From an uncultured bacterium (GTDB taxonomy: Bacteria; Hydrothermota; Tepidihabitantia; SM23-42; CAYGYG01): a DNA stretch of 64,000 nucleotides. Within the stretch, counting starts at the first letter, position 1. Each line of letters begins with the position of its first letter. The notes beneath the pieces are model-generated. The model saw only the letters and a list, made by a program, of their open reading frames with translations. It was not told where the DNA came from and did no database searches. The position numbers were made by a program, and so were the translations under genes. This document shows, one piece after another, positions 19,241 to 36,839 of this stretch. The stretch is from contig CAYGYG010000009.1 of NCBI GenBank assembly GCA_964354155.1, positions 6,053-70,052 of the forward strand, read 5' to 3'.

Positions 19241-19244
19241 CGAT

Positions 19245-19273: not shown

Positions 19274-19275
19274 AG

Positions 19276-19830: not shown

Positions 19831-19833
19831 GCC

Positions 19834-20916: not shown

Positions 20917-21155
20917 CACGACTTTTATATTTCCCTGACGGCGATAAATTTTGGGCTTGTGGTTTCATATTCGCCCAATTACTCTATTTCATGAAATTAT
21001 TACTCGTTCTTATTACCTGCGATTTATCAAAAGTTAGACCGCTACCCCGAAAGCGCCGCCCTTGGGCGGCGGGGTAGCTTGTGTGATTGTCGTGGCTCAG
21101 ATGAACCCTAACTGCGCCCAAAACCTATCGCCTTTCAATTTATACAAAAGTCGTG
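20917..21155 (-). ncRNA. Unknown structured element, copy 1 of 3
   Basis: Nested inverted repeats CACGACTTTT/AAAAGTCGTG, GCGATAAATTTTGGGC/GCCCAAAACCTATCGC, GCTACCCC/GGGGTAGC; core motifs shared with 22538 and 36311; mismatches become G-U pairs on minus strand. Confidence 0.7.
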
Positions 21156-21254
21156 CACTAAGTACAGAAGCTACCGGTAACGATCGCCGGCTTCCCTGGA
21201 CCGGCACCCGTCCGCCGGCGTGTTATCCGGAGTTCAAGATTTGATTTTTGATAT

Positions 21255-22418
21255 TTACTTTTTAATTTCCTTCCCATAAACTTCCTCGGCCGCCACCCTG
21301 AAGCCGTCGATCGGATACTTTCCAAAACCGTTTTGCGCCATCCGCGCCATGGTCCCGTCGTCTCTCAGTCGTCTAACCGTCCGGCCAAAGTCGCCGGCCG
21401 CATCCTGGTTAAGGGGTAGGGCGACTTTATGCGCCAAAGCGAAGTCGTAGTTCCGCCTGGCAAAGGGGCCGATCAGCGGTCTTAAGGCAAACAGCGGCAG
21501 GCCAAGGCCGACCGCCCAATTGGTCCTTTCGTGAGACGCCGCAACGAAGACGTCAAGTTCCGGCACAAGTTCAACGGCCCGTGCCGTATCGCTTTGCCGG
21601 TCTGGTCGCCAGACGAGAGTGACGATATCCCAGGCCGGACTTAAGTTCCCGGCACGATCCACCCTAACCTTCAATGAAAGCGCCGTGAGCCGGCGGGCCA
21701 GCATCCGGCACTTCGACCAACTGCACCCGGCGAAGACAAGTACTCTGTACTCATTACGCGCCGCTGACGCGGCCGCGCTGAGAATCAGATCAGTATGGGC
21801 CGGAGGATATGCTCCGGATGTGAAGAATCCGATGGTCAGATGCTTGCCGGTTTTGATCCGTTGGAGCCTGCGGTCCAGCGCTTGGGCCGCACCGGAGACC
21901 AGGCCGGGCTCGATCATAAGACCGGTGACCGAAAGGCTTGCCGCCGGTTGACCCAGCGCGGTAAACCCGTTCTTGGTTGACTCAAGCGGCACGAAGACCC
22001 GGGTTGCTTCCGGGACGATGCTGGTACGCGGCGCCGCGATCTCCCCGTGAACGTAGTAGACCCGCCTGATACCGCCGAGCATCCGGGCGACAATGGGATG
22101 TTCAACGAGGATGATTGTGTCGGGCCCGGCCCGCCCCGGGCCCAGGTCCCGGGCCAGCAGTCTTACGAGTAGTCCACCGGTCGAGCGTTGTGACCGCATC
22201 CGGTTGTAGAGCGCGGTCACCAGGCCGCCGCGGCTGCCGGTATGGTAGGCAAGCCGGACCGCGTTCCATGCCGCGCGGGAAGCACGGCGGCTCACCTGAA
22301 AGACATCAAAGATCGGTATCGGCAGGCGATAACGCGCGGCTAGGGTCTGGAGCAAACCATCAAGATAGTTGGGATGACCCCGTCCGATATCCGTGTACAG
22401 GGCGACGATTCGGGACAT
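21255..22418 (-). CDS. Putative GT-B fold glycosyltransferase-like protein
   Basis: N-terminal DIGRGH motif, IILVEHP, GLGLPLFAL; leaderless after TTGACG-N16-TACAAT (22425-22452). Confidence 0.6.
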   Translation of the reverse strand: MSRIVALYTDIGRGHPNYLDGLLQTLAARYRLPIPIFDVFQVSRRASRAAWNAVRLAYHTGSRGGLVTALYNRMRSQRSTGGLLVRLLARDLGPGRAGPDTIILVEHPIVARMLGGIRRVYYVHGEIAAPRTSIVPEATRVFVPLESTKNGFTALGQPAASLSVTGLMIEPGLVSGAAQALDRRLQRIKTGKHLTIGFFTSGAYPPAHTDLILSAAASAARNEYRVLVFAGCSWSKCRMLARRLTALSLKVRVDRAGNLSPAWDIVTLVWRPDRQSDTARAVELVPELDVFVAASHERTNWAVGLGLPLFALRPLIGPFARRNYDFALAHKVALPLNQDAAGDFGRTVRRLRDDGTMARMAQNGFGKYPIDGFRVAAEEVYGKEIKK

Positions 22419-22537
22419 GCGACAATTGTACCTATGGTTGGGCTGGCGTCAAGACATGACCCGGTCGGATGTGAGAGTCCCGTGACTTCGATTCGTAGAC
22501 TATGGCCCGGAGCTGACTCCTCTCCACTTATTTCTAA

Positions 22538-22774
22538 CACTACTTTTGCCTTTTTTAAAGAAGATTAAATTTAGGCTGGTGGTCTCATATTCGCCCGATA
22601 GTGCTTAGACTCAAAAGAACAAAGGTTGTTGATATTAGCCAAGCAAGTCAGAGGTTCGGTCGCCACTCTCAGCCAGCAACCCTTTGGTCGCAGAGTGGCT
22701 TAGCTAATACTCGCGGCTCAGATGAGCCTCACGGTGCCTAAGATTTATCCTTCTTGTATTCTACAAAAGTCGTG
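22538..22774 (-). ncRNA. Unknown structured element, copy 2 of 3 (inside outer inverted repeats 22513-22811)
   Basis: Same scaffold: CACTACTTTTG/CAAAAGTCGTG, TCATATTCGCCC, GCCACTCT/AGAGTGGC, GGCTCAGATGAGCC. Confidence 0.7.
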
Positions 22775-22823
22775 CAGTTTATACCTTGTAGGAAAAGTGG
22801 AGAGGATTCAGGGCCCGGAAAGC

Positions 22824-22851
22824 TTGACAAGCCCCGGATATAGCTTATAAT
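22824..22851 (+). promoter_or_regulatory. sigma70-type promoter of the TBDR operon
   Basis: Consensus hexamers TTGACA-N16-TATAAT. Confidence 0.75.
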
Positions 22852-22925
22852 AAGCGTTAGACGCAGCCCGGCGCTGACGGTTCTGGGCCGAATAGTTGCC
22901 GCGCCGGATACCGACAGGAGGACCA

Positions 22926-25475
22926 ATGGTCAGCACTCTCTTGATGGTTTTTTTTCTGAGCACGACTTACGGCAAGATCCAGGGCGTGGTCACGGACGAG
23001 ACCAGCGGTAACCCGCTGCCCTACGCAAGTATCACGGTTCTGGGTACGGACCTCGGCGCTTTGACGGACGAGAACGGCAAGTTCTTCATTCTCAACGTGG
23101 ACCCGGGCAAGTACGTGGTCAGGGTCACGAATGTTGGGTATCAGACGAAGCTAATTGACAATGTTGTCGTCGAAGTGGGCTTAGTAGTCCGGCTCAGTGT
23201 GACCATCGCCGAGCAGCCTATCGAGTTAAGCCCGGTTACGGTGACCAGCGAACGACCTCCGGTCCAGAAGGAGATGATCGGCCCGACCTTCAGTATCAAG
23301 AAGGAAGAAATTTTCCTGCTGCCGGTCGATCACGGCCTCGGTTTTGTCGCTTTTCAGCCTTCGGTTGTGCGTATTGACACGGCTCTTCATGTCCGGGGCG
23401 GACGCGCCTCCGAAGTGCTGTTCATGATCGACAACGTCTCCATCGTCGACCCCCAGAGCGGCGATCTGGCGATTCAGATGTCCAAAGGGATTCTCGACGA
23501 AGTCGTCTTCCTGCCCGGCGGTTTTGATGTCGAATACGGCCGGGCCATGTCCGGGGTGATCAACATCATCACCGCACGTCCCGCGGACCGATTCCGGGCC
23601 AAGGCCTACGGCAAGACGGAACGGATCATGCCCTACTATTGGGATTTCGGTTACGACAACTACCAGGTCTCAGGGCACGTGCCGGTGTCGAAGCAGGCCC
23701 GGGGTTATCTTTCGTTCGACCTGATGCAGACCGATGACTGGGACCCCAAGCTTTTCATTTTACCGCACAAGGAGCGCGACGATTACTCGGTATACGGCAA
23801 GTGGTTTCTGGGGCTCCCGGGCATGCTGCGCATGACGGTGAGCGGCGCCAAGTCTTTGAGCAAATTCGACCGCTATAACAGCCAGTGGAAATTCCGGCTC
23901 GACCACTACCGATCCGACATGAGGGAAGGTGATCTGGAGGCCGTGCATCTCAACTACTTTCCCAGCTCCCGGCGGACGTTTGACCTGATCGTGAGCCGTC
24001 TGGCCACCGAACGGCAATATGGGCTGCGTTCGGGTCAGAACGCGGCCTTCTTCGAACGATTCGACTTCTGCGACCCAGATTCGCTGACCTGGCCTTTTCC
24101 CAACTTCAACAACCCCTATGGAGTTCTTCTCAAGTATTTCTACGGCGAGGGCGACTATCCGGAATACGAGAGGAAGGCCAGCGAGGTCATGAAGGGCAAC
24201 CTGTCGAGCACGATGCAGCTGCACCAGTACCACGAACTGAAAGGCGGCGTGGAGTATGCGCGGATCAAGATCGACAACTACACGGCCTTCGCGGTCGACA
24301 GTCTCCACCGGATCGTTGACGAGTACCAGCACCGGCCTTGGGAGCTGGGCGCGTACCTCCAGGACAACATCGACTACAAGGGCATGTATGTGAAAGCCGG
24401 GATCCGATACGATGAATTCCGCACCGGCATGGAGAGCATCGCGACCAAACGCGTCGTCTCACCCCGTTTTGGATTATCCTACATGGTCACTGAGCGGTTC
24501 ATTTTCCGGACCAATATGGGACAATACACCCAGCCGCCGCTTTATGACCATCTTTTCGGCGGCCTGAACTTGGTGCCGATCCCGGCCTATCTCACGAAGC
24601 CCCCGCCGATCGGCAATCCTGACTTGAGACCGGAAAAGACGAGAAGCTTCGAAATGGGTCTCCAGGGCGAAGTAAGTCAGGGGTTCATGATCACGGGCAA
24701 CGCCTTTTACAAGGATGTGACCGACCTGATCGGTACGCGCATCAAATATGTTCTGCCCCGGAACTATGTTACCTATTACAACGTCGAAGCGGCCAACATC
24801 AAGGGGCTGGAGATGATCCTTGATTTCAAAGGCGAGATCTACACCGGGAAGATATCATATACGCTTTCCTATGCCAAGGGAACCAGTTCGTTTGCGGAAG
24901 ATGTCTATCAGCGCTACTTCAAGGAGAACCCTAATCCGGACACGGCTTTTGTACCGGAAGCGACTGATTTCAACTTAGACTTCGACCAGCGCCACCGGAT
25001 TTTCATTCAGGGCCTGGTGAATCTGCCGCTGGAGGCCAAGATGGGCGTGTTCGGCTATCTGGGTAATGGTTTTCCTTATACGCCGCCGGGCCCGGAGGGC
25101 AAGCTTGAAGAGCGTAATATTCTCAACCTGCCTTTTCAGAAACAGATCGATTTCGTTTTTCTGAAAGGGGTCAAACTCGGCCGATTCGCGGCCCATGCCA
25201 ACGTCGAAGTGATCAACGTGCTCGGCATCCAGAATCAGATCGCCCCGCGCTTCACCTACGTTCCCGAAGACCAGATCCAGCCCCGGCTTTTCACCAATTC
25301 CTATTCCATTTTCAACAGCACCTACCATCCGGCTGCGGACAAGAACCATGACGGCATACTGGCGGCCAGCGAGTATTATGCCGCTTTCACCGATATCAAT
25401 GATGAGTCCGAGGACTATGTCAATTGCTATACGCAACCGCGGCGTGCCCGCGTCGGTCTCTCGATAGAGTTCTGA
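22926..25475 (+). CDS. TonB-dependent receptor with N-terminal carboxypeptidase regulatory-like domain
   Basis: AGGAGG RBS; GKIQGVVTD...TDENGKF; plug HVRGGR, GGFDVEYG; GNPDLRPEKT; terminal Phe. Confidence 0.92.
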   Translation: MVSTLLMVFFLSTTYGKIQGVVTDETSGNPLPYASITVLGTDLGALTDENGKFFILNVDPGKYVVRVTNVGYQTKLIDNVVVEVGLVVRLSVTIAEQPIELSPVTVTSERPPVQKEMIGPTFSIKKEEIFLLPVDHGLGFVAFQPSVVRIDTALHVRGGRASEVLFMIDNVSIVDPQSGDLAIQMSKGILDEVVFLPGGFDVEYGRAMSGVINIITARPADRFRAKAYGKTERIMPYYWDFGYDNYQVSGHVPVSKQARGYLSFDLMQTDDWDPKLFILPHKERDDYSVYGKWFLGLPGMLRMTVSGAKSLSKFDRYNSQWKFRLDHYRSDMREGDLEAVHLNYFPSSRRTFDLIVSRLATERQYGLRSGQNAAFFERFDFCDPDSLTWPFPNFNNPYGVLLKYFYGEGDYPEYERKASEVMKGNLSSTMQLHQYHELKGGVEYARIKIDNYTAFAVDSLHRIVDEYQHRPWELGAYLQDNIDYKGMYVKAGIRYDEFRTGMESIATKRVVSPRFGLSYMVTERFIFRTNMGQYTQPPLYDHLFGGLNLVPIPAYLTKPPPIGNPDLRPEKTRSFEMGLQGEVSQGFMITGNAFYKDVTDLIGTRIKYVLPRNYVTYYNVEAANIKGLEMILDFKGEIYTGKISYTLSYAKGTSSFAEDVYQRYFKENPNPDTAFVPEATDFNLDFDQRHRIFIQGLVNLPLEAKMGVFGYLGNGFPYTPPGPEGKLEERNILNLPFQKQIDFVFLKGVKLGRFAAHANVEVINVLGIQNQIAPRFTYVPEDQIQPRLFTNSYSIFNSTYHPAADKNHDGILAASEYYAAFTDINDESEDYVNCYTQPRRARVGLSIEF

Positions 25476-25478
25476 GGC

Positions 25479-25997
25479 ATGGCCGGTAGTATGAGACGAC
25501 GGTTCCAGAGAGGATTGCCACTATCGATGCTGGCCGGTGTCATTCTATTCTCAGTGCACTGCAAATGGCCCTGGGAATATATCAATCCCGACGATCGCGT
25601 GCCCGCGCCCGACCCGCCGGTGATTACTGAACCCAGGCCGGACACCATCATCTGGTGGCACCGTGCCGCCGTGGTTATCTTCGACTGGACGAAAGTCGCG
25701 GGCGCAGAATTCTACCAGATTGACACGGACAGTACGTCGGCCTTCAACTCAGCCGACGACAATCCCTTCCGCGTCACGGCCGAGGTCGATTCGCCGCCGG
25801 CGCCGGTTACGTTTGGCGGTGGGGCGCTGGTCCAGCGCTACTATGGCCGGATTCGCGGGCTGAGCCAGGGCTGGAAAGAAGGGATGACCGAGTGGTCGAC
25901 GGTGCGCTCGGTCGTCATGAAACGTCAACAAGCCGCCGGTCCGAAGCAGGAATATCCTCATGCCGAGGGCGAGTTTGACCTTGAGGAGGTTAGATGA
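25479..25997 (+). CDS. Lipoprotein with fibronectin-III-like domain (paralog of next gene)
   Basis: Lipobox-like SVHC; PAPDPPVITEP..DTIIW, FDWT, YQID.DS..FNS, TEWS. Confidence 0.7.
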   Translation: MAGSMRRRFQRGLPLSMLAGVILFSVHCKWPWEYINPDDRVPAPDPPVITEPRPDTIIWWHRAAVVIFDWTKVAGAEFYQIDTDSTSAFNSADDNPFRVTAEVDSPPAPVTFGGGALVQRYYGRIRGLSQGWKEGMTEWSTVRSVVMKRQQAAGPKQEYPHAEGEFDLEEVR

Positions 25998-26434
25998 AAC
26001 GTTACGGGACAAGGCTGATCCTGGGGATCGGCATAGTCGCGCTGGTGGTTGCATCGAATCGGTGTAAGTCGCCGGTGGAATCGGACGATGATTTGCCGCC
26101 GGCACCAGCGCCGCCCGTGATGATCGAACCGCATGCCGATACGACGATCTGGTACGCGATTTCACCGCAGGTACAATTCAACTGGACCGCGCTTGAGGGG
26201 GCGCAGGCGTACGAAATCGACATCGACAGTTCCGCGCAGTTCAATTCGACCGAGGATAACCCCAACAAAATCCTGGCGCGCACCTCGGCCCCGCCGACAA
26301 CGGTTATGTTTCCGAGAGTCAGCAATCAGAGATTCTACTACCGAATCCGCGCTACGAGCCAGAGCTGGCGCACCGGTATGACGGAATGGTCGTTGCCGCG
26401 CTGGCTGGTCCTGCGTTACCAACCCGGCTCCTGA
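25994..26434 (+). CDS. Lipoprotein with fibronectin-III-like domain (tandem paralog)
   Basis: PAPAPPVMIEP..DTTIW, FNWT, YEID.DS..FNS, MTEWS; GAGG RBS. Confidence 0.75.
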   Translation: MKRYGTRLILGIGIVALVVASNRCKSPVESDDDLPPAPAPPVMIEPHADTTIWYAISPQVQFNWTALEGAQAYEIDIDSSAQFNSTEDNPNKILARTSAPPTTVMFPRVSNQRFYYRIRATSQSWRTGMTEWSLPRWLVLRYQPGS

Positions 26435-26476
26435 GCACGCGTGAACCGCCGGGATCGCATGACAGGTAAGTAGACC

Positions 26477-27046
26477 GTGGTACTGCTATTCTTCGTTTTT
26501 CTCGCCGTTGAGCCGGAAATAAGGGTGGGGTTGGTCTTTCCTCAATTCATCGCGGGCGAGAACGAGATCGGCACACTTTTTAACCCCGCGGCTACGGTCT
26601 ATCTTAGTCGCCAGGACTTCAGTTTCGGGATTTTTGGCGATGGTTATCTCAAACGGACCGACCCATACAGCGGCCGCTACTTCAAGGAATCTGGAGAGTA
26701 CGCGGCCGCCCGGGCCTTGGGCATTGGCGGAGTACTGCGCTGGCGTTTCTTCTGGTTTGCCACCGGTAAGGTCGGGGGTGGTTACTATGGCGGCAGTATT
26801 GACCGGGCGGCGGTCGATAGTGCCGGCCGGGTCATGCAGGAGAGAGACGGCCGGAGCTCGCTGGGCCTGTTCATGGCCTGGGATTTGTATCAGCGGATTG
26901 GCCGGTACAAGGTCGGCGGCGAATTCAAGATCAACTATGTACCTTTCGGCGCCGAATCCGGGGATTACGTATTACAGCAGAATGTCGATTCCTTCAAACG
27001 CGTGTCGCTTACCGGCATTGGCCTGAGCCTCTTGGTCGGTCTATGA
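26477..27046 (+). CDS. Putative small outer-membrane beta-barrel protein
   Basis: Amphipathic beta-strand pattern; C-terminal GIGLSLLVGL. Confidence 0.55.
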   Translation: MVLLFFVFLAVEPEIRVGLVFPQFIAGENEIGTLFNPAATVYLSRQDFSFGIFGDGYLKRTDPYSGRYFKESGEYAAARALGIGGVLRWRFFWFATGKVGGGYYGGSIDRAAVDSAGRVMQERDGRSSLGLFMAWDLYQRIGRYKVGGEFKINYVPFGAESGDYVLQQNVDSFKRVSLTGIGLSLLVGL

Positions 27047-28101
27047 AGCGCCATTGGGCAGTCGCCACGGTGTTGTTGGGGTCAGGATATCTTACCGCCG
27101 CCCGGGGCCTCATCATCAGCCCGGTGCCGCACACGACGTTCTGCAGCGGCCAGGCCGCCATCATCCATTACGGCGCCGGCCGGGAAGAATTGCACGTCCT
27201 CTACAAGGGGTCGCTCAATCCTTATCGCTCAAGCCTCTGGCTCATCCCGGTACCGGCCGAGCCGACGATCGGCGATTTTCAAATACCGGTTCTCGATCAG
27301 CTGTCCCGGCTTTCCGCCCCGGTTCGTCATGGCGTGGTGCGGAGCCGCGGTTGCTACGGCTACGTCACCACCGGGTTTTCCGAGGCGAATGATGGATATG
27401 ATCTTGACAAAGTCGAATTGCTCGAAGCCAATATCGCCGGGGTGAACGCGGTGAGCGTGATTCACACCGACAATGTGGATTCGCTGAGCCAGTGGGTCCG
27501 CGATCGCCATTACATCTGGTTGTCCGGGTATGAAGACGCGATCGACTACTACCTCAGGCAAGGATGGACCTGGTTTGTGGCGGTCAAGACCGACTCGGGT
27601 CATCCCTACGAGGGGTGCGCGGTCAGCCTTTCCTTCAACAGCGCCGAACCGGTTCTGCCCCTTGAGATTCTGAAGGAGGACCCCTTCTCGAGTAAGAACT
27701 ATGACCAGAAGTTCGCCGTCTACGTTACCATTGTCGCCGACGAAAAGAAATCGGGCGAGGGTTTCGACCTGCGTTATGCCAACCGGCTGGACGACGATGA
27801 ATGGAAGGCGGCGGCAACGGATATGCCCGGACTGCAAGGTCTGCTCAAGAGCGGCGATTACGTGACGAAGCTGAGCCAGCGGTACGGAAAGGCGGGAGAA
27901 ATCCGGGGTGATCTGGTGCTCAAGAAGGCTCCGGATACTAAGGAATACCGGAGCATAATCAGTGAAGAAATCTACCAATACTACAATGAGGCGGGCAATT
28001 GTCTGTTGTGGCTGATTGCTTGTTACCCGTGTTACCTGGTGGGACGCAAGATCGTGCGCCGTGCTCGACACCGACGGTCCAGCGGCACCCAAGCCGAGTG
28101 A
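27043..28101 (+). CDS. DUF2330-like exported protein with C-terminal membrane anchor
   Basis: QAAIIH, WLIPVPAEP, LSQWVRD..Y, YLRQGWTWFVAVK. Confidence 0.7.
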   Translation: MKRHWAVATVLLGSGYLTAARGLIISPVPHTTFCSGQAAIIHYGAGREELHVLYKGSLNPYRSSLWLIPVPAEPTIGDFQIPVLDQLSRLSAPVRHGVVRSRGCYGYVTTGFSEANDGYDLDKVELLEANIAGVNAVSVIHTDNVDSLSQWVRDRHYIWLSGYEDAIDYYLRQGWTWFVAVKTDSGHPYEGCAVSLSFNSAEPVLPLEILKEDPFSSKNYDQKFAVYVTIVADEKKSGEGFDLRYANRLDDDEWKAAATDMPGLQGLLKSGDYVTKLSQRYGKAGEIRGDLVLKKAPDTKEYRSIISEEIYQYYNEAGNCLLWLIACYPCYLVGRKIVRRARHRRSSGTQAE

Positions 28102-28238
28102 GCAGATAACGCCTTCCTGCGGGGCAACAATTCCTGTTTACAAGTCGTACGATTCTGGGTAGAATCATCATCAGCCGACGATTACCGGGAAAGGGTCGTC
28201 GGGTGATTGGATCTCTAACCAAAAGGTAGGGTCTTGTG

Positions 28239-28466
28239 ATGTTTGTTGTCCTTGTGATTACTCAGGTTCTGGCGAGCCTCTCTCTCTTGGGCAGCCTGGT
28301 CAAAGGTCTGGGTGGTCTGGCGATTATCGGTAACATGGCGCTGGTGGTCTTGCTGGCCTGGCTTACGGTTCGGGTGCGCGTCAAAATGACCAGAAAGGAA
28401 AAGGAAAACTTGCGCGCCCGAATCGACGAACTGGAAAAGAAAATCGAGTCAATAACCAAAAAGTAA
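28239..28466 (+). CDS. Small membrane protein with coiled-coil tail
   Basis: Two TM helices followed by KEKENLRARIDELEKK. Confidence 0.6.
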   Translation: MFVVLVITQVLASLSLLGSLVKGLGGLAIIGNMALVVLLAWLTVRVRVKMTRKEKENLRARIDELEKKIESITKK

Positions 28467-28517
28467 TAGACGCTTCAGTCATTTCCCGGAACGGTATTTT
28501 TTTAGTCAGGAGGTAAG

Positions 28518-29612: not shown

Positions 29613-29729
29613 CGGTGAAGAAGATTCCAGGTCTTCTCCAATTTGGGTGGGTCGATTTCGGTCATTTTCTTGGGGATCGGGAAGCAACTTCTAGATATTC
29701 GAGTTTTGTGCGATGAATCGCACCGCTAC
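29609..29729. repeat. GTAG-type REP-like inverted pair
   Basis: GTAGCGGTG (29609) inverted with CACCGCTAC (29721-29729); minus-strand GTAGCGGTGCGATTCATCGCAC hairpin. Confidence 0.45.
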
Positions 29730-29758
29730 CTACTTCCAGTTTCGGATTTGCTTAAGAC

Positions 29759-30340
29759 TTAAGACAGGGTCTTAAGGACGCGTTTGCAGATTTCTTTCAG
29801 GGTTTCAAAGACGCCGACACCCTGACTGGCAACTCCCTCGAAGTAGGGGTAGCTGCCCTGTGAGTTTAGTATCTTCTGGATCTCGGCAACCGAGTTGATA
29901 TTCGGCAGATCCCGCTTGTTATACTGAAGAACGAGAGGGATCCGATCGAGCGAGAGGCTATAGCTTTGCAGATTGTCGAGCATGTTCTGAAAGCTCTCGA
30001 TGTTCACATCGTACCTTTCGATCTGAGAATCGGCCACAAAGACAATACCGTCAACACCCCTGAGAATCAACTTCCTCGAAGCATTGTAGAAGACCTGACC
30101 CGGCACCGTGTACAGATGAAATCTGGTCTTGAAACCCTTGATCGTGCCCAAATCGACCGGCAGGAAGTCAAAGAAAAGCGTACGGTCAAGTTCGGTGGCC
30201 AGGCTGATCAGCTTACCCTTAATCTCCGGGTTCAGCTTGGTGAAGATGTATTTGATATTGGTGGTTTTACCGCCCAGTCCCGGACCATAGTAGACGATCT
30301 TGCAGTTGATTTCGCGGGAAGCATAGTTGATCAGAGCCAT
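29759..30340 (-). CDS. mglA: MglA small Ras-like GTPase
   Basis: KIVYYGPGLGGKTTN, DRTLFFDF, LYTVPGQVFY, YNKRDL. Confidence 0.95.
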   Translation of the reverse strand: MALINYASREINCKIVYYGPGLGGKTTNIKYIFTKLNPEIKGKLISLATELDRTLFFDFLPVDLGTIKGFKTRFHLYTVPGQVFYNASRKLILRGVDGIVFVADSQIERYDVNIESFQNMLDNLQSYSLSLDRIPLVLQYNKRDLPNINSVAEIQKILNSQGSYPYFEGVASQGVGVFETLKEICKRVLKTLS

Positions 30341-30348
30341 CCGATCTC

Positions 30349-30849
30349 CTAAAACCCGAAGAGCTTGTCCAGTTCCTCTTCGGCGGCTTTTGTGAAGTCA
30401 GAGTCTATTTTCGATGACTTCTTCGGCGGGCCATGATCGATCTTTTTGAAGATATTAGCGAATACCCGGTCTAAGGCTTCGGCCGTGGCTCTGGTTTTGA
30501 TACGAACCAACCCCAGCGTTGTGCGCTGATCGAAGATCACCGCGAGAATGACCCGGTCGGCGACGAGGCTGATGTAGATGTTCTCTTTCTCACCCTGGTG
30601 GAAGATTGTGCCGAACTCGCGCTCGCCGATCAGGCTCGCCAGCTGGGAAGTAGCGGCGAAATCGGCCGCCGAGAGAGTGGCAAAAGACGAAAGGTCGATG
30701 CGGGAGGTATCGCCGGTTGACGTAATCAACTGCCCGGCCTTGTCAATCAGCATGGCCGTCTTCGAATTGGTCGAGGCAATTAACTTGTTGAGGACGTCGT
30801 TAATCGCCCAGAATTCCTCTTCGAATATATTAATACCTTCTTGAGACAT
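30349..30849 (-). CDS. mglB: MglB roadblock-domain GTPase-activating protein
   Basis: LIDKAGQLI, AADFAATSQLA.LIGE.EF...FHQGE, TTLGLVR. Confidence 0.93.
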   Translation of the reverse strand: MSQEGINIFEEEFWAINDVLNKLIASTNSKTAMLIDKAGQLITSTGDTSRIDLSSFATLSAADFAATSQLASLIGEREFGTIFHQGEKENIYISLVADRVILAVIFDQRTTLGLVRIKTRATAEALDRVFANIFKKIDHGPPKKSSKIDSDFTKAAEEELDKLFGF

Positions 30850-31025
30850 GACCCGGTTCCATCATTAAGATTACTATTCTATCCGGTAAGGGGCGGTTGT
30901 AAAGAGAAAAGAACGGACGCAAGCTTACGGTGTGTCCCGAAAGGGCGGTAAATCTTACGATAGTGGGCCGGTCCGGCAATGCGACCTCAATCCGGCATGT
31001 CGCCGAGGGATTTGGATAGAAAGAT

Positions 31026-31053
31026 AAGGGGGGTGCGGGACGGCACCCCCCTT
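31026..31053. terminator. Intrinsic terminator-like hairpin after por operon
   Basis: AAGGGGGGTGC-gggacg-GCACCCCCCTT. Confidence 0.7.
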
Positions 31054-31061
31054 TCAATCTT

Positions 31062-31988
31062 CTACTGACCTTCCTGATGGCGTTTCAGCAGTCGATCCCA
31101 CTTGAAGTCAAACTCGGCTTGAATGCGATCGATCATCGCCTGGTCCTTGGCCTTGAAGATGTGGGCAAACCGGTCCTGAATCTTCAGGAATTCGACCACG
31201 GGTTTCTTTTCTTTGGGCATGATCGAAATGCGGTACTTCCGGTTCTCATACTCATAGAGCGGCCAGAAGCAGGTTTCCACTGCCAACCGGCTTATATCGA
31301 GTGTTTTCTCCGGAGGATAGCCCCAGCCCAGGCGGCAGGGCGAAAAGATGTTGATGAAACTGGGTCCATCGGTGGCCAGTGCTTTCCGGACCTTGGTTAC
31401 GAGGTCGTTCCAGTAGGCGATCGTGGCCTGGGCCGCATAGGGGATGTCATGGGCGATGATGATTTCGGTAAGATCCTTGCGCGGCTGCATCTTGCCGGGG
31501 ATGACTTTGCCCGCTACCGAAGTCGTCGTGTGGGCGCCGGTCGGCGTTGCCGAGGAACGCTGAATGCCCGTGTTCATGTAGGCCTGGTTGTCGTAGCAGA
31601 CATAGAGCATGCGGTGACGCCGTTCAATCGCGCCGGACAGAGCCTGAATCCCGATGTCGTAAGTGCCGCCGTCGCCGCCCACCGCGATGAAGTCGATGTC
31701 CTTGGTGATTTTGCCCATTTTCTTCTGCGCCCGGTAAGCCGCTTCGACCCCGCTGATTGTTGCCGCAACGTTCTCAAAGGCGTTGTGGATATAGGGCACC
31801 TTCCATGCCGTGTACGGGAAGATCGTGGTAACGACTTCGGCACAACCGGTAGCCAGGCCGACCACAACCGGGCGTTCTGCGGCCAACAACACCTGGCGCA
31901 GTGCGATCGTGGCGCCGCAGCCGGCACAGGCGCGATGACCGCCGGCCAAAAGGTCGGTTTTCTTTGCCAGTTCTCGCAAGTTCGCCAT
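31062..31988 (-). CDS. porB: Pyruvate:ferredoxin oxidoreductase beta subunit
   Basis: GHRACAGCG, TGCAEV, GGDGGTYDIG...YDNQAYMNTGIQ TPP-binding motif. Confidence 0.93.
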   Translation of the reverse strand: MANLRELAKKTDLLAGGHRACAGCGATIALRQVLLAAERPVVVGLATGCAEVVTTIFPYTAWKVPYIHNAFENVAATISGVEAAYRAQKKMGKITKDIDFIAVGGDGGTYDIGIQALSGAIERRHRMLYVCYDNQAYMNTGIQRSSATPTGAHTTTSVAGKVIPGKMQPRKDLTEIIIAHDIPYAAQATIAYWNDLVTKVRKALATDGPSFINIFSPCRLGWGYPPEKTLDISRLAVETCFWPLYEYENRKYRISIMPKEKKPVVEFLKIQDRFAHIFKAKDQAMIDRIQAEFDFKWDRLLKRHQEGQ

Positions 31989-31989
31989 A

Positions 31990-33159
31990 TCAGCTCCTTA
32001 CCCCGTAATAAGTGATCGGGGCGGTTACCTTTCCTTGGTTCCGGATATCAAACAGCTGCCGGTAGATTTCCTTGATATCCTCAATGCTGATATCGCGTCC
32101 GCCCAGTCCGTAGACGTAGTTGGCCAGCAACGGCTTGGTCGGCTCGTCGTAGAGGATCGAGCGTGTTTCAATGTAGAGCTGGCCGCCGTTGGTCGAAAAG
32201 CTGTCGGAGCGGTCCATGACCCCGACGACTTTGAGTTTCTTGAGTGCGGCCTTGAGCATGGCGACGGGAAAGGGACGAAAAACCCGGAGCTTGATAAGGC
32301 CGGCCTTCTTACCTTCCCGGCGTAACTCGTCGACCGCGATCCGTGCAGTGCCGACGGTCGAACCCATTGCCAGGAGCGCGACTTCGGCGTCCTCACAACG
32401 GTATTCCTCGAGAATGGGATAACCGCGCTTGAAGCGCTGGCTGAACTGTTTGTTCACTTCCTCGATTGCCGGCAGAACATGGTTCATGGCGTCGATCTCC
32501 GACATCTTGTGCTCGAAGTAGTAGTCCTGTAAATCAAGCCCACCCACGGTGAAGGGTTTGTCGACGTTGAGCAGCGAGTACTTGGCTTCCCGCGTGCCGA
32601 CGAAGCTCTTCACGGCTGGGTCATCAAGCAATTCGATGTTCTCCATGGCGTGGCTGATGATGAAACCGTCGATGGTGATCATTACCGGGAGCAGTGTCTT
32701 CTCCGCAATCAGCACGGCCTGAAGGACCGAATCATATGCTTCCTGCGTACGCTCGGTCAAGATCTGAATCCATCCCGCATCCCGGGCACCCATCGAATCA
32801 GAGTGATCACAGTGGATGTTGATGGGGCTGGAAAGCGAGCGGTTGACCAGGCAGAGGACGATGGGCAGTCGCAAACCGGCCGCGATATAGAGAATCTCAT
32901 ACATCAGGGCCAGTCCCTGGGAGGAAGTCCCGGTCATAACCCGGGCTCCGGCCGCCGCCGCACCAACACATGCGCTCATCGCCGAATGCTCGCTTTCAAC
33001 CGCGACATACTCGGTATCCACCTGGCCATTGGCGACAAAGCCAGAAAAGATCTGGACAATCTCGGTGGCGGGGGTAATCGGATATGCGGCGACGACGTCA
33101 GGGTTGATCTGCCGCATGGCCTCGGCCATTGCTTCATTGCCGGTTCGTGCGACAATCAT
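31990..33159 (-). CDS. porA: Pyruvate:ferredoxin oxidoreductase alpha subunit
   Basis: GNEAMA, YPITPAT, ESEHSA, TSSQGL; start MIVART after GGAGG. Confidence 0.93.
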   Translation of the reverse strand: MIVARTGNEAMAEAMRQINPDVVAAYPITPATEIVQIFSGFVANGQVDTEYVAVESEHSAMSACVGAAAAGARVMTGTSSQGLALMYEILYIAAGLRLPIVLCLVNRSLSSPINIHCDHSDSMGARDAGWIQILTERTQEAYDSVLQAVLIAEKTLLPVMITIDGFIISHAMENIELLDDPAVKSFVGTREAKYSLLNVDKPFTVGGLDLQDYYFEHKMSEIDAMNHVLPAIEEVNKQFSQRFKRGYPILEEYRCEDAEVALLAMGSTVGTARIAVDELRREGKKAGLIKLRVFRPFPVAMLKAALKKLKVVGVMDRSDSFSTNGGQLYIETRSILYDEPTKPLLANYVYGLGGRDISIEDIKEIYRQLFDIRNQGKVTAPITYYGVRS

Positions 33160-33443
33160 TTGACCTCCCTTTCCATGGTAATCGCGTTGGCCTTGGGCGG
33201 ACATTCATAGGCGCAGATGCCGCAGCCTTTGCAGAAGTCATAGTCGATCCCGGTGACCTTGCCGTTTTCCACGATGATTGCCGAATCCGGGCAGTAGATC
33301 CAGCAGAGGTAGCACTGGACGCACTTGTCTTTATGCCAGATCGGCCGCTCGCTGCGCCAATCGCCGGTTTTGAATTCTCGCGACGTACCGCCTTCGGGGA
33401 TGACACAGCCGATCTCGAGTTCGGTCCATTTCTTGAGCTTCAT
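33156..33443 (-). CDS. porD: Pyruvate:ferredoxin oxidoreductase delta (ferredoxin) subunit
   Basis: KTGDWR; two CxxCxxCxxxCP motifs. Confidence 0.93.
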   Translation of the reverse strand: MKLKKWTELEIGCVIPEGGTSREFKTGDWRSERPIWHKDKCVQCYLCWIYCPDSAIIVENGKVTGIDYDFCKGCGICAYECPPKANAITMEREVK

Positions 33444-34018
33444 CCTTCAATGACCTCCTCATAGGCTTTCTCGATGGCCTTGACGTTACCGTCGACGATC
33501 TGCGGCCGGCCCGGGAATTTCTTCTCAAGTTTCCCGCGCACCGACTTGACAGTCTCTTTGAAGTCGAGGATCCGGGTAACCTTGATCATGGCCCCGAGCA
33601 TCGGGGTGTTGGGGATGTCGCGACCCAGTATTTCCTTCGATATCTTGCTGGCATCGACGACATAGATTTTCTGCTTCTTGCCAAGATTGAGTTTCTTACG
33701 AAGAACGTCGGGCTTGTCCTGAGTATTGATAAGAAGAACGCCGTCCTCTTTCAAGCCATCGGTGACCGGGACGCTGGCAATCAAGCTTGCGTCGAGAATC
33801 ACCACGATGTCCGGATTTTTCACGCCGCAGTGTTGGAAGATCGGCGCGTCCGAAAGCCGATTGAACGCCTGGACCGGCGCACCCATTCTTTCCGGACCGT
33901 ACTCCGGAAACCCCTGGATGTGCTTTCCGGTGTCCATGGCGGCATCGGCAAAGAGCAGTGCCGCGGTTTTGGCCCCCTGGCCACCCCGGCCGTGCCACCT
34001 AATCTCTAAAAGAGCCAT
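33440..34018 (-). CDS. porC: Pyruvate:ferredoxin oxidoreductase gamma subunit
   Basis: EIRWHGRGGQGAKT, FPEYGPERMGAP, NTPMLGA. Confidence 0.93.
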   Translation of the reverse strand: MALLEIRWHGRGGQGAKTAALLFADAAMDTGKHIQGFPEYGPERMGAPVQAFNRLSDAPIFQHCGVKNPDIVVILDASLIASVPVTDGLKEDGVLLINTQDKPDVLRKKLNLGKKQKIYVVDASKISKEILGRDIPNTPMLGAMIKVTRILDFKETVKSVRGKLEKKFPGRPQIVDGNVKAIEKAYEEVIEG

Positions 34019-34074
34019 GTCGGCCTCCTAATCTTAAGGCAAACGAATAGAATCGAAAATGTGGCTAAGACACT

Positions 34075-34179
34075 ATCCTACAGGGTCGGGCAACCCTAAC
34101 TCTTGGATTACTGGCAATTGTAGGATGAACGTCACCTGTTGTCTTTGATCCGCAAATCAGCGCAACAGGCCGGGCGTTC
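34075..34179 (-). promoter_or_regulatory. Structured 5' leader of por operon
   Basis: Two abutting hairpins: GAACG..CCTGTTG/CAACAGG..CGTTC and ATCCTACA/TGTAGGAT. Confidence 0.4.
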
Positions 34180-34183
34180 TTCT

Positions 34184-34211
34184 ATTATACTCGGATTATC
34201 CGATTTGTCAA
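34184..34211 (-). promoter_or_regulatory. sigma70-type promoter of por operon
   Basis: TTGACA-N16-TATAAT. Confidence 0.75.
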
Positions 34212-34248
34212 GACAGGGACTGAGCTGGTAGGTGACTCGCATCGGATA

Positions 34249-34274
34249 TGTGGGAGCGACATCCTTGTCGCGAA
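34249..34274 (+). repeat. REP-like palindrome
   Basis: TGTGGGA-GCGACA-tcct-TGTCGC-GAA: GTGG tetranucleotide plus hairpin. Confidence 0.45.
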
Positions 34275-34285
34275 AAGAAGCTCAT

Positions 34286-34316
34286 AAAAAAATACGGGGC
34301 ACAACCGTGCCCCGTA
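34286..34316 (-). terminator. Rho-independent terminator of the putative selenoprotein gene
   Basis: TACGGGGCAC/GTGCCCCGTA stem followed by a U7 tract on the minus strand. Confidence 0.8.
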
Positions 34317-34334
34317 CTTCAGATGCAATTCAAG

Positions 34335-36287
34335 CTATCTCAGTAGAATCACCTTTTCCGTTTTCTCTGTTTCCAGGGTAGTCAGCCTCAGGAAATAGAC
34401 GCCTTTGGGCAGATCACGGCCGCGGTCATCGGTGCAATTCCAGTCAAGAACTGTTGTCGTACTGGATATCATTCGGCTCAGGTTGCGCACCAGCCGGCCG
34501 GCAGGGTCATAGACCCGCAGGCTGGCTTTCTGGCCAGCCGGGACCTGAAGGTTGATCATCAGCCGATTTCGGGCGGGATTGGGATAAGCCGAGAAGACCG
34601 GCCGGGAAAGACGGTCTGGCGAATCGGTCTCGATCGCGGTCATCAGCGTCGGGGGCCAGGTTGTGTATTTGAGCGCCCGGGCGGTGGTGATGGGCACGGC
34701 GTACTCGTGGTAAGCTCCTTCGTAGTAGTACTGGAGACCGACACTGCAGCCGTAGTTCTGGATGCCGACCGTGTTGCTGGTCAGGTGCATGGCTTCTTTG
34801 TACTGAACGATGATCTCACCATCACCGGTTGGGGTCGGATAGTAGGCCGGGTCATAGAGAATGATCTCGAAGGTCTCAGGATAGCCGGTCTGACTCAAGT
34901 GTTCGACCTTGAACCATTCGGCAATAAACCGGTGCCGCGTGGCATCATTGTAGTAGTAGACGTCACCCGGGCCGACGGCAGGAGGATAGAGGTCATCCCA
35001 GATGCCGCAGACCACGGCGGGTGGGGCTTGGGTATTGGGCAGGGGCGTGTTGGTCCAGGTGGTGAGGGTTGTCGAGCCGAGGGCGACCCAGCCGTTGGAG
35101 CAAATCGAAACCTGGGTGTAGTTGTTGCCATAGTACTTGAAGGTGAAGGGTAGATTGATGACGAATGTCTGATCGTCCCCCGGATCGAGCGAAACACCCT
35201 GGTTTACCGTCTGGCTTGTATCGATCGGAAACCACGAGTAGACCGGGCATTGCCGCCATGGACCTCCCGAATGGTAGCTGTAGTAATACCCGGTGTCGCT
35301 CGGCGGAACCGAACCGACCATCAGCTGAAAGTCGAACGTATCGGCCCAGGTGTTCTCGCGCGCGATGATGCGGAACGGTGCCTTGTGGCCGAGCGGGCAG
35401 CTGGAAAGGGCCTGCACCCCATAGCGGTCCGCGCTGTTCTCTTTGGTGCTGTCGATCAATAACGAACCGAAATTGCCGCTGTTGTCGGTAATGGTAACGT
35501 AGGGTGAGGTAGTGGAGATCGTCGAAGCCAGGTTGATGAAGCTGCGGCCGCCGATGTTCTTCAAAAAGGCGGTAAGGGTGGCCGTCTCGCCTGGATCCAG
35601 CTTGCCGTTATTGTTGCCGCCGGTGTCGTAGACCTTTGTTTTGATGAAAGAGAGAAAGTACTGCTGCCCAAGATAGTTGAGTGCTGCGTCGTCGGCGAAG
35701 ACCTTCGCCTTTTCGAGAGCACCTCAACACGTATGGGCACAACTGTCAAAGAGTGCAACCCTGACTTTCTTCACCTGGGCCGGAACAACGCCCGGCAGAT
35801 TGGCCAGTTCGGTTCTAAGATTGAACGAATAGGTATGCCAGAGCGTATCGGCAGCCGGAATCAGGTGCTGGGTGCTAGTGTTGCGCCAGGCGCACGGTGT
35901 CGTGAAACGGCAGATCCGAGTCGCGCCCAGAACCGTGCCGCTCGAGTTAAAGTAGGAAAGGATTACCGCCGCCGCGGCCCAGCAGAGAGTGTCCGCGTCG
36001 TTGTCATAGGCATAGAGTTTGGCCTTAATCGAGAATGAGAAACTGTCGACCGAGGTGATGTCAATCGTCTGCCACAACTGTGTGTAGCCACCAGAGTACT
36101 TGTACGCGTAAGCTTCGTAGTCCGGGTCCGGTTCATAACCCGTGGCCCGGTTAACGGTATCATATAGCGACGGAACGTATGATTGCCAGCCAACCGCAAG
36201 GTCTTCCTCGAATCCGGGATTGGCGAGGAAATTGCCGGCGGCGACCAGCCCGATGCACAGTACGACCAGAAGGATAGTCGGCCTCAT
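34335..36287 (-). CDS. Putative secreted selenoprotein (650 aa, Sec188): signal peptide, CBM-like jelly-roll, nidogen/C25-associated-like region, FlgD-Ig/T9SS-A sorting domain
   Basis: ORF-track ORFs 35724..36287 and 34335..35564 are in the same frame and separated only by TGA at 35724-35726 (...SCAHTC-U-GALEKAKVFADD...); SECIS-like hairpin follows. Confidence 0.78.
35678..35726 (-). promoter_or_regulatory. Bacterial SECIS-like element
   Basis: UGA-N14-GGCGAA-GGUC-UUCGCC; apical loop 20 nt after UGA; lower stem GUGCU/AGCAC. Confidence 0.72.
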
Positions 36288-36310
36288 TTACACCTCCTTG
36301 TTTCCTTGAA

Positions 36311-36583
36311 GTTACGACACTAACATTACAACTTTTGCATTTTCTATAATGCGAATAGAATTTAGGTTCGTGGGCTCATATTCGCCCAAGGAAAGTCTAA
36401 AGATGCGGCTTGGTCCGTTTGCGATTAATATCTCCAAATCGAAAGTTAGGGCGCCACCCTAAGCGTGCCGCTTTTCAAGCTAGCAGGGTGGCTTAGGTTC
36501 TGCCCGTGGCTCAGATGAGCCTTACTTCACCTAAAATCTATCCTTATTTCTGTACTTTTACACAAGCCGTGTAACATCATAAC
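36311..36583 (-). ncRNA. Unknown structured element, copy 3 of 3 (in 5' leader of the putative selenoprotein gene)
   Basis: ATAGAATTTAGGT/ACCTAAAATCTAT, GGCTCATATTCGCCC, GCCACCCT/AGGGTGGC, CGTGGCTCAGATGAGCC; outer 12-bp stem pairs fully only with G-U on minus strand. Confidence 0.7.
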
Positions 36584-36614
36584 CCGCTGGTTATTTGATA
36601 TGGCTCGATTCATC

Positions 36615-36642
36615 ATTGTAAACACATCGGCCGAGATGTCAA
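36615..36642 (-). promoter_or_regulatory. sigma70-type promoter upstream of element copy 3
   Basis: TTGACA-N16-TACAAT. Confidence 0.7.
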
Positions 36643-36811
36643 CCTTTATTTCTCGGGCAGTTCGGGCACAGGTCGGACACTTCGACTGCCTACGACCGTA
36701 CCGTCGGAAGCTCGCTCCTGCCGAGTGCCATTTCGCCGGATGTTCCGATGAGTCAATGCTTATCTCCTAAATCACACGCGGGGACAGCACAGCAAGGTCC
36801 ATATAATCCTG

Positions 36812-36839
36812 TTGACATTTCAACAAAACTGACTATAAT
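36812..36839 (+). promoter_or_regulatory. sigma70-type promoter
   Basis: TTGACA-N16-TATAAT. Confidence 0.75.

Follow-up and report, generated by a model that had tools for sequence, protein, structure and literature searches.

[quoted passage not shown] The ERIC/IRU and Correia (CREE) sequences are intergenic imperfect palindromes of 100–250 nt, which form rods when transcribed and differ greatly in copy number among related genomes. The bridge or seek RNAs of IS110/IS1111 and the omega RNAs of TnpB/IscB are encoded inside or beside a recombinase or nuclease gene and have guide loops that match their targets; to our knowledge, these elements have no terminal inverted repeats. We also know of no IS200/IS605 or integron attC system that leaves target-site duplications of the kind described below. 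IS4 members of the IS10/IS50 type produce a 9-bp duplication. Bacterial MITEs, in the part of a published account on which we draw, are 50–800 bp long, with terminal inverted repeats of at least 10–15 bp, duplications of 2–10 bp and no transposase (PMC11602168).

Within the window, the whole 64,000-nt stretch of DNA that was analysed, three ~240-nt copies of one element (c1, c2 and c3) share a common scaffold and all lie on the minus strand, as a preliminary description had proposed; their nhmmer E-values (8e-70 to 5e-64) are far beyond chance and their mean column identity is 73%. We set the limits of the copies from flanking duplications and motif coordinates. c1 (subfamily A, 239 nt) occupies 20917–21155, as originally delimited, and its P1 (5′ strand 21145–21155, 3′ strand 20917–20927) is a perfect 11-bp inverted repeat; the core motif CTGAGCCACG is at 21091–21100, the P4 strands are at 21071–21080 and 21040–21048, and the core motif GGGCGAATATGA is at 20965–20976, all on the minus strand. 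The segment first taken for c2, 22538–22774, stands as an inner unit (minus strand; core CTGAGCCGCG at 22712–22721, P4 strands at 22692–22701 and 22661–22669, GGGCGAATATGA at 22585–22596), and the full copy is a 299-nt composite of subfamily B that encloses it (22513–22811, minus strand). c3 (subfamily C, 245 nt), also minus-strand, was recovered within narrower limits, 36327–36571 instead of 36311–36583, with CTGAGCCACG at 36505–36514, P4 strands at 36485–36494 and 36452–36460, and GGGCGAATATGA at 36376–36387. All of the landmarks named beforehand, namely P1 (CACGACTTTTG/CAAAAGTCGTG), CTGAGCC opposite GGGCGAAT and P4, were found by motif coordinates. The predicted fold of c1 has an energy of −93.6 kcal/mol; fold z-scores against shuffled sequences were −7.5, −3.8 and −3.1 for c1, c2 and c3, and none of 200 shuffles equalled any copy. 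Covariance model R1 detected c1 and c3 with E-values of 5.8e-31 and 2.2e-33, respectively. The longest ORF inside c1 is at most 60 aa.

The copies are flanked by short target-site duplications. At c3, ATGTTA occurs at 36572–36577 (5′ copy) and 36321–36326 (3′ copy), identical at 6/6 positions. At c1, TTAGT occurs at 21157–21161 (5′ copy), with one base (G, 21156) between it and CACGAC, and at 20912–20916 (3′ copy); read on the plus strand, the latter holds the TAA stop (20914–20916) of a convergent anti-sigma-like gene (19834–20916), whose stop codon c1 abuts. The c2 composite is flanked by a 9-bp duplication, TTCCGGGCC at 22812–22820 (5′ copy) and CTCCGGGCC at 22504–22512 (3′ copy), which agree at 8/9 positions, and no separate duplication flanks its inner unit; all of these repeats are given on the minus strand. 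Across the genome, the duplications are copy-specific (TTAGT, ATGTTA, TAATC, TACTG, TCCTTA, TATTTA), and in two subfamily-B copies the duplications are 9 bp long, with agreement at 8/9 and 9/9 positions. In-register flank repeats at no fewer than five of six bases were present at 10 of the 12 CACGAC-type copies, compared with 9 of 132 non-cognate pairings examined as controls, and none of 20,000 permutations attained the observed mean.

The c2 site is empty in a syntenic metagenome contig, L089: the interval measures 160 nt there and 449 nt in the window, and what is missing is exactly the c2 composite (22513–22811) plus one copy of the duplication. Moreover, the ends of the c2 outer shell, CTGAATCCTCTCCAC...GTGGAGAGGAGTCAG, are those of an IS4-family insertion sequence of a relative, G001 (L071 103–1298). 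This ~1.2-kb element encodes a 368-aa IS4-family-like transposase, which matches the profiles PF01609 and NF033591 (E 1.3e-39, under the cut-off of the latter model). We consider it probable that c1–c3 are copies of a MITE that represents a new family of an uncultured WOR-3 bacterium. The multicopy, non-autonomous and mobile nature suggested earlier is thereby upheld, with one change: given the terminal inverted repeats, the 6- and 9-bp duplications and the empty c2 site, mobility looks DNA-based, not RNA-based.

The family extends well beyond the three copies originally counted. The genome (G000, candidate division WOR-3) contains 12 full copies in three subfamilies, besides one with an insert, one half copy and one divergent copy; they are scattered across 10 contigs, not arrayed. 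The family also includes mini forms with internal deletions, and nested insertions. Distribution among relatives is patchy: counting G000 itself, 4 of 41 relatives gave BLAST matches and the covariance model detected the element in 2 of 151 genomes drawn from the phylum, and the exact core pattern occurs in only three WOR-3 assemblies of the genome collection. Relative G030 contains 68 matches to the 13-nt arm, most of them at the ends of contigs; the reversed control gave 4. At seven loci from three other genera with homologues of two downstream genes, the element was absent (E up to 0.01). None of the loci examined contained an autonomous element with CACGAC ends, and searches of G000 for three transposase families returned no match for PF01609 or PF00665 and one fragment for PF00872.

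Gene context varies from copy to copy. A 387-aa gene lies between c2 and c1, both of which have the same orientation. A promoter-like consensus match, TTGACA-16-TATAAT (12/12; 22824–22851, plus strand), belongs to a TonB-dependent receptor gene; its −35 hexamer lies 12 nt downstream of the end of the c2 composite. The 387-aa gene has the match TTGACG-16-TACAAT at 22425–22452 (minus strand); since this site is downstream of c2, the copy has two divergent promoter-like sites downstream of it, where a single promoter had been described. c3, which had been placed in a 5′ leader, lies between a promoter-like site, TTGACA-16-TACAAT (36615–36642, minus strand), and the start codon of a 187-aa gene (35724–36287); if this consensus match is used, c3 would be transcribed in the 5′ UTR of that gene. 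Orientation relative to genes is not fixed (6 sense and 11 antisense in tandem contexts), the functions of the neighbouring proteins are unrelated, and the copies showed neither a conserved promoter nor a conserved terminator. A regulatory role is not indicated, and the earlier view that the element is not a simple riboswitch is supported. A scan of 26 proteins, 24 from ORFs that directly flank copies and two from further ORFs of the window, found no transposase, RT, TnpB or IS110 family. As noted before, the window offers no partner enzyme.

As a MITE the element would be ordinary in kind, but the conservation of its folded central core is unusually high. This ~150-nt core consists of P3, a CUGA/GAAU internal loop and P4, and it is constant also across genera. 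Within subfamilies, identity is 0.64–0.91 at the termini, 0.90–0.96 in P2/P3 and 1.0 in GGGCGAAT; conservation that is higher in the interior than at the termini is the opposite of the typical MITE pattern. The same core is also paired with other termini, such as GTGCGTGGTCA in G001, which counts against the MITE reading. It is possible, if rather unlikely, that the core functions as a structured RNA module, protein-binding or cis-acting, that rides several transposon shells and is kept by the host at some loci such as c1, for instance as a 3′-UTR element or a small RNA. The copies would then still have come by transposition, and RNA function would explain the persistence of the core. The covariation that the preliminary description proposed to examine is indeed there: in 22 copies, 9 of 20 pairs of P3 and P4 changed on both sides, a score that none of 500 shuffles attained; in the full-length alignment, both-sided changes affect 18 of 42 predicted pairs; and the core helix of G006 has a compensatory change from G-C to A-U. 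The non-complementary CTGA/GAAT pair is invariant and asymmetric, which is odd in a plain inverted repeat, and for 15 of 19 copies the sense strand gives the more stable fold (consensus fold −42.1, versus −24.5 for the antisense strand). However, covariation fits RNA and folded DNA alike, and the unconstrained orientation and the lack of a common neighbouring function or of a conserved promoter or terminator speak against an RNA. Plus-strand A-C mismatches had been read as G-U pairs of a minus-strand RNA; this argument fails family-wide, as the isolated arm-helix mismatches of 29 copies comprise 7 G-U, 13 A-C and 31 others, with no excess of G-U.

Conservation at c1 bears on the same question. 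In a comparison of the window with L089, identity is 97.5% for the orthologous c1 and 97.0% for the adjoining unique, non-repeat 99 nt that separate c1 from the 387-aa gene's stop codon (21156–21254, minus strand), compared with 81–92% in coding regions and 74–86% in other intergenic regions. Together, they have 9 differences in 338 nt, whereas third codon positions in the adjoining genes differ by ~16–26%. That c1 and its flank are better conserved than the adjoining genes was counted against a plain MITE reading. As support for an RNA module, however, the figure comes from one genome pair and could reflect a recombination tract; at other loci the copies are ~70% identical next to flanks at 70–75%, with no extra conservation of the copies. 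The preliminary description had named a decayed DNA MITE as the outcome that would refute it; a DNA MITE is the probable outcome, without the copies being simply decayed.

The conserved non-complementary positions in the rod, the upkeep of structure while sequence varies, and the placing of the 387-aa gene between co-oriented copies would also suit a folded single-stranded DNA element, akin to the ends of IS200/IS605 with their HUH transposases or to integron attC, in which recognition would act on the rod with its fixed mismatches. We regard this as very improbable in view of the copy-specific 6- and 9-bp duplications, the spread over 10 contigs with no array, and the lack of any HUH or integrase family among the 26 scanned proteins. 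Least probable are the roles proposed at the outset, namely an RNA that serves as guide or bridge (by the logic of IS110/IS1111, TnpB or box C/D) or as a polymerase decoy in the manner of 6S, to which the rod-like structure and the fixed-length segments between conserved landmarks had pointed. The supposedly variable segments are markers of subfamilies, not of copies (identity 0.76–0.96 within and 0.37–0.48 between subfamilies), and outside the copies the genome has no match to them of at least 13 nt with E <2, which leaves the guide or template reading unsupported. No recombinase gene adjoins any examined copy, and the tandem G-A loop, as read from the sequence, is not the kink-turn needed by box C/D because it has no 3-nt bulge. 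The element is absent from Rfam 15: near the copies nothing matched, the 6S family included, even with E allowed up to 10, and the copies of relatives gave no match with E up to 1.

Returning to the MITE reading, a transposase acting on the CACGAC type would bind the CACGAC...GTCGTG termini and cut AT-rich, TAnTTA-like sites with a 6-bp stagger; repair of the cut would yield the 6-bp duplications of c1 and c3. c2 would be a CACGAC-type unit carried in a second shell made of the two ends of an IS4-family IS, whose insertion 12 nt ahead of the promoter −35 box would have created the 9-bp duplication. The copies in G000 are now probably mostly immobile, and transcripts through them would be expected to fold into the rod.

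Among the known systems, 6S RNA resembles the element in its rod-like fold with an internal loop, but the element is multicopy, flanked by duplications and without an Rfam match. Like the RNAs of IS110/IS1111 and TnpB/IscB, it is a structured non-coding sequence of a mobile element; unlike them, it has terminal repeats and duplications, no recombinase or nuclease gene beside it and no target matches. With ERIC/IRU and Correia (CREE) it has in common an intergenic imperfect palindrome that would fold to a rod on transcription and a copy number that varies widely among relatives, but it shows no sequence likeness, belongs to another phylum and is longer, and its central domain (P4 plus ~65 nt) is large and asymmetric where they have a simple hairpin. 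The IS4-family element of G001 has its first 21 and last 17 nt in common with the c2 shell, and the 9-bp duplication of the composite is that of the IS10/IS50 type; it differs in that the shell has no transposase and a CACGAC-type unit in its place, and no IS4-type gene was found in G000. The closest likeness is to bacterial MITEs, as defined in the account cited above (PMC11602168): the element is 239–299 nt long, with 11-bp terminal repeats and 6- or 9-bp duplications, and is non-coding, intergenic and multicopy, with deletion derivatives and nesting. It departs from them in that a parent IS is known for the c2 shell only, and in an interior that is conserved above the termini, covaries and recurs with other termini.

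The three intergenic segments singled out in the preliminary description are true minus-strand copies of one scaffold, with a mean column identity of 73%. They measure 239 nt (c1, 20917-21155), 299 nt (c2, 22513-22811, a composite in which an inner unit at 22538-22774 is enclosed by an outer shell) and 245 nt (c3, 36327-36571). The landmarks, namely the terminal inverted repeat P1 (CACGACTTTTG/CAAAAGTCGTG), CTGAGCC(R)CG, the P4 hairpin and GGGCGAATATGA, lie at the positions first assigned to them, and a profile built from these three copies recovered each of them at E values of 8e-70 to 5e-64. The longest open reading frame overlapping the c1 intergenic region comprises 60 amino acids; the region holds no meaningful frame and no transposase gene. 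The window's own genome (G000; 2.96 Mb, 62 contigs) contains 12 full copies on 10 contigs, and our covariance model gave 16 matches there at E values up to 1, of which 14 were at 3e-9 or better. These copies fall into three subfamilies: c1 belongs to A with two further copies, c2 to B with four, and c3 to C with three as well as the broken copies. The 10-nt and ~65-nt segments, initially regarded as variable between copies and as possible copy-specific guides, show identities of 0.76-0.96 inside a subfamily and 0.37-0.48 across subfamilies; instead of being copy-specific, they mark lineages.

P1 is paired at 11 of 11 positions in c1 and carries one to three mismatches in c2 and c3, and the ends of the c2 shell form an inverted repeat of ~15 bp. 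Adjoining the termini are direct repeats that differ from copy to copy: TTAGT at c1, ATGTTA at c3, and TAATC, TACTG, TCCTTA, TATTTA and TAATTA at others. When the flanks of copies with CACGAC-type termini were compared in register, at least 5 of 6 positions were equal in 10 of 12 cognate pairs versus 9 of 132 non-cognate pairings, and the mean flank match exceeded that of all 20,000 permutations. Of the two misses, one is a mis-anchored copy and the other is a single register off; the comparison left out three copies that failed anchoring and the five subfamily B copies. Among the latter, 9-bp duplications were found at c2 (8 of 9 positions) and at the copy on contig C1 (9 of 9), the other three being without a clear duplication, and the B inner unit has no duplication of its own. 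Since the stop codon (TAA) of the convergent gene falls within the c1 duplication, the insertion left the protein unchanged. Unlike the 6-bp duplications of other copies, a 21-nt direct repeat, ATTTCATTCTTCATACCCAAT, borders one of two divergent copies in the genome of a relative, G006 (L060 1432-1684), and the 3′ member of this repeat belongs to the P2 stem.

An empty counterpart of the c2 site was found in a metagenome contig (L089) that is syntenic with window positions 17879-29587 at 83-86% identity. The distance from the gene for a 387-aa protein to the TonB-dependent receptor gene is 160 nt in L089 versus 449 nt in the window; the L089 flanks are collinear over the insertion point (TTGTCAAG, about 10 nt, then ATARTCTACG), and what is missing is exactly the 299-nt c2 composite together with one copy of the 9-bp duplication. 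Sites filled in three other contigs (L086, L088 and L090) are empty in G000 or in a second relative, G030, in alignments less clean than that of L089. The contigs of four DNA runs over 18500-38400 were short; no joint among them skips an element, and no piece spans an empty site. We conclude that the copies came by DNA transposition.

The outer shell has a recognizable counterpart. Each of the five B copies continues outward as far as CTGAnTCCTCTCCAC...GTGGAGAGGAnTCAG, which are the ends of a ~1.2-kb insertion sequence (IS) in the relative G001 (L071 103-1298, contig C3; ends CTGAGTCCTCTCCAC...GTGGAGAGGAGTCAG), a second copy of which is cut off by a contig start (L092 1-125, contig C17). This IS encodes a 368-aa transposase that matches PF01609, its best NCBIfam model being the IS4 family NF033591 at an E value of 1.3e-39, with a score of 136 bits that lies under the curated cut-off of 152. 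Duplications of 9 bp are what IS10/IS50-type elements make, and the IS4-family-like IS of G001 is likely the parent of the c2 shell. An outward-facing hexamer, TTGACA or TGTCAAG, frequently lies 11-14 nt from the end of a B-type shell or of the IS, as at window 22811-22829, at the G000 copies on C28 and C1, and in L039 and L071. Judged by eye, such a hexamer is near the shell end on the 5′ side in four of the five B copies and on the 3′ side in several; at c2 it is the -35 element of a perfect promoter-like site. This arrangement suggests insertion just upstream of promoters.

For the CACGAC-type termini, a pattern search of four genomes, whose assemblies break at repeats, for an autonomous IS gave small copies only, and a metagenome scan gave six loci, none with a transposase-sized interior. 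In G001, the same core occurs with other termini (GTGCGTGGTCA) bordered by 6-7-bp direct repeats; searching for these termini added one solo match and one ~95-nt deletion form. A search of five genomes for PF01609, PF00665 and PF00872 showed none of these families in all element carriers: two carriers, G035 and G006, have no match to any of the three, and G000 has no match to PF01609 or PF00665 and a single fragment of PF00872. Because the termini of the G000 copies have also decayed, these copies are probably immobile now.

By BLAST, the element was found in 4 of 41 relatives, G000 included, the element-bearing relatives being titled candidate division WOR-3. Two divergent copies in G006 were gained with the covariance model, which places the element in two of 151 genomes sampled across the phylum, G000 again included. 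The exact core pattern matched nine stretches in three WOR-3 assemblies across the whole genome collection, and the phage and plasmid collections gave no match to the element. In G030 (1.9 Mb, 87% complete), a 13-nt arm had 68 matches versus 4 for the reversed control. Most of these lie 40-90 nt from contig ends, a position that is the mark of a recent burst. The element stands behind many contig breaks in G030, and it is useful as a repeat annotation for WOR-3 genomes.

Rearranged and decayed forms accompany the full copies. Arms-only mini forms of 65-112 nt, without the core, occur in G030 (L101, L104 and L107) and in a metagenome (L087), and also at L102, L103 and L106. Four of them have a common junction inside a TGAGCC direct repeat and the others are joined at other short repeats; the mini forms may have originated recurrently by in-place deletion. 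Since such a junction could arise repeatedly in place, we did not accept them as proof that the core is dispensable. G000 also holds a 5′ half copy and a C-type copy with a 233-nt insert in its P4 region (C16:58933-59165). The insert belongs to a second repeat family, with many full and partial copies on at least 20 contigs (C3:125457-125688, for example, at 90% identity), and its presence within a C-type copy implies that G000 carries several small, mutually nesting repeat families. In three copies from two subfamilies (C5:86452-86704, C5:115991-116245 and C24:23329-23592), the tip of P4 has given way to a small hairpin (GTCCGCC, 3-4 nt, GCGGAT). This hairpin is found as well in a truncated copy on C33 and in the 233-nt repeat, which suggests either that insertions hit this loop repeatedly or that copies exchanged sequence. 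On the window's contig, outside the window, a GC-rich divergent locus (C9:89212-89559; L022 1275-1622) has one complete core besides a tandem array of three 5′ core units; P3 at this locus is altered on both strands (UGAU/AUCA), and the covariance model matched it at an E value of 1.3e-17. It lies between a 306-aa gene and the 3′ end of a gene that we take to be ThiC-like from a reading of its protein sequence. A degenerate stretch at C52:9700-9860, with the core-like motifs CATCTGAACCAC, GGTCTAACTTTT and CGAATGAGTGCC, was missed by the profile searches and is probably a decayed copy.

The gene context of the copies is heterogeneous. The 12 full copies in G000 lie in eight divergent, two convergent and two tandem regions (one sense, one antisense), and 27 copies from other genomes and contigs, where genes were called crudely as longest ORFs, lie in 7 divergent, 5 convergent, 5 tandem sense and 10 tandem antisense regions. 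Orientation is uninformative in divergent and convergent regions; the tandem regions total 6 sense versus 11 antisense. The scanned neighbours, 26 proteins, have unrelated functions, including a lysyl-tRNA-synthetase-type enzyme, enoyl-CoA hydratase, peptidases, a methionine-synthase-like protein, a GTPase, secreted proteins and a TonB-dependent receptor; matches to transposase, reverse transcriptase, TnpB or IS110 families were absent from all of them. Being downstream of the 387-aa gene and co-oriented with it, c1 is probably in the 3′ UTR of that gene, and c3, situated between a promoter-like site and its gene, is probably in a 5′ UTR. The 387-aa protein (21255-22418, minus strand) and a 187-aa protein (35724-36287, minus strand) have no Pfam match and have homologues in relatives at 46-49% identity. 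Both divergent promoter-like sites have c2 upstream of them, and none of seven loci in G001, G030 and G035 with homologues of the genes downstream of c2 and c3 contains the element at E values up to 0.01. On the grounds of these seven loci, the unrelated neighbours, the mixed orientations and the placement of c2, we rejected a cis-regulatory leader or riboswitch; the element is neither a leader nor a regulon.

Other RNA classes were considered as well. Rfam 15, the search suggested in the preliminary description, gave nothing over the window at the gathering threshold. At E values up to 10 over 20000-37500 there were three unrelated weak matches, all off the copies, and the relatives' copies had no match at E values up to 1. 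The 6S models were unmatched both at the gathering threshold over the window and at E values up to 10 over 20000-37500, and 6S RNA was set aside. The proposal that the variable segments act as guides also fared poorly, as they have no match of at least 13 nt with an E value below 2 in the genome outside the copies; this lack of targets, with the absence of IS110 and TnpB family members among the scanned neighbours, argues against an IS110 bridge RNA or a TnpB omega RNA. A kink-turn has tandem G-A pairs beside a 3-nt bulge, and box C/D RNA has C and D boxes. In the element, CUGAGCC opposite GGGCGAAU gives C-U, U-A, G-A and A-G followed by three G-C pairs with no bulge, so that a box C/D kink-turn was rejected; an RUGAUGA box is absent from the element, as read directly in the sequence. 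A switch between P4 and a terminator in c3 was likewise discarded: c3 has a terminator-like hairpin that, by eye, is not kept in the other subfamilies.

The rod fold has z-scores of -7.5 (c1), -3.8 (c2) and -3.1 (c3), with 0 of 200 shuffles as stable. In the internal helices P3 and P4, 9 of 20 pairs have double-sided changes and 92.5% of cells are paired; no shuffle of 500 reaches this score, and slid controls are 31-47% paired. The full-length alignment has double changes at 18 of its 42 predicted pairs. CTGA and GAAT, which oppose each other without being complementary, are invariant in 22 of 22 aligned copies; in G006, the G-C pair adjoining them is now A-U. This covariation implies selection for pairing and is silent on whether RNA or DNA is the folded molecule. 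The consensus fold scores -42.1 in the element's own (sense) orientation versus -24.5 in antisense, and 15 of 19 copies are more stable in sense. The original argument for a minus-strand RNA, that mismatches read as G-U pairs on that strand, was not borne out by the isolated arm-helix mismatches of 29 copies (7 G-U, 13 A-C and 31 other), which we used because the count over all mismatch columns (56 G-U, 61 A-C and 244 other) is dominated by loop columns.

These features bear on an alternative, which we consider unlikely: the ~150-nt core, made up of P3, P4, the invariant tandem G-A loop (CUGA/GAAU) and the 3′ segment, would fold into a functional RNA or single-stranded DNA that binds a protein. 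It would have hitch-hiked in at least three transposon shells (with CACGAC, GTGCGTGGTCA and IS4-type ends), have outlived them and, at loci such as c1, be kept by the host through purifying selection. [quoted passage not shown] In L089, the 239 nt of c1 have 97.5% identity and the adjoining unique 99 nt 97.0%, as compared with 80.7-92.5% for coding regions and 73.8-85.7% for other intergenic regions in the same block; 9 of the 338 nt of c1 and its unique flank differ, versus ~16% and ~26% of third codon positions in the 300 nt bordering each side. The orthologous c1 has therefore evolved several-fold more slowly than neighbouring third codon positions, which, in this one genome pair, reflects either purifying selection or a recent exchange confined to that stretch. 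At other loci, conservation of the copies does not exceed that of their flanks. If the core were functional, an uncultured phylum would harbour a mobile module of structured RNA; should the core act as an RNA or bind a protein, it would illustrate how transposition can spread a structured module that the host afterwards retains. A core that covaries, outlasts its termini, recurs in different mobile shells and has a slowly evolving c1 ortholog is worth modest follow-up.

We consider it fairly probable that the whole story is a family of non-autonomous DNA transposons mobilized in trans. CACGAC-type units would insert by a 6-bp staggered cut at TAnTTA-like sites, and an IS4-family enzyme would move the B-type composites by a 9-bp cut, in many cases 11-14 nt away from a TTGACA that faces outward. 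Literature searches for WOR-3 together with miniature inverted-repeat elements or with insertion sequences and transposases yielded no description of the element. Read as a MITE, this apparent new RNA class need not be chased as a riboswitch, guide RNA or 6S analogue. MITEs, as defined in PMC11602168, are 50-800 bp long, lack a transposase, and have terminal inverted repeats of at least 10-15 bp and target-site duplications of 2-10 bp; on this reading, the feature is a transposable-element family, a new family of this known kind.
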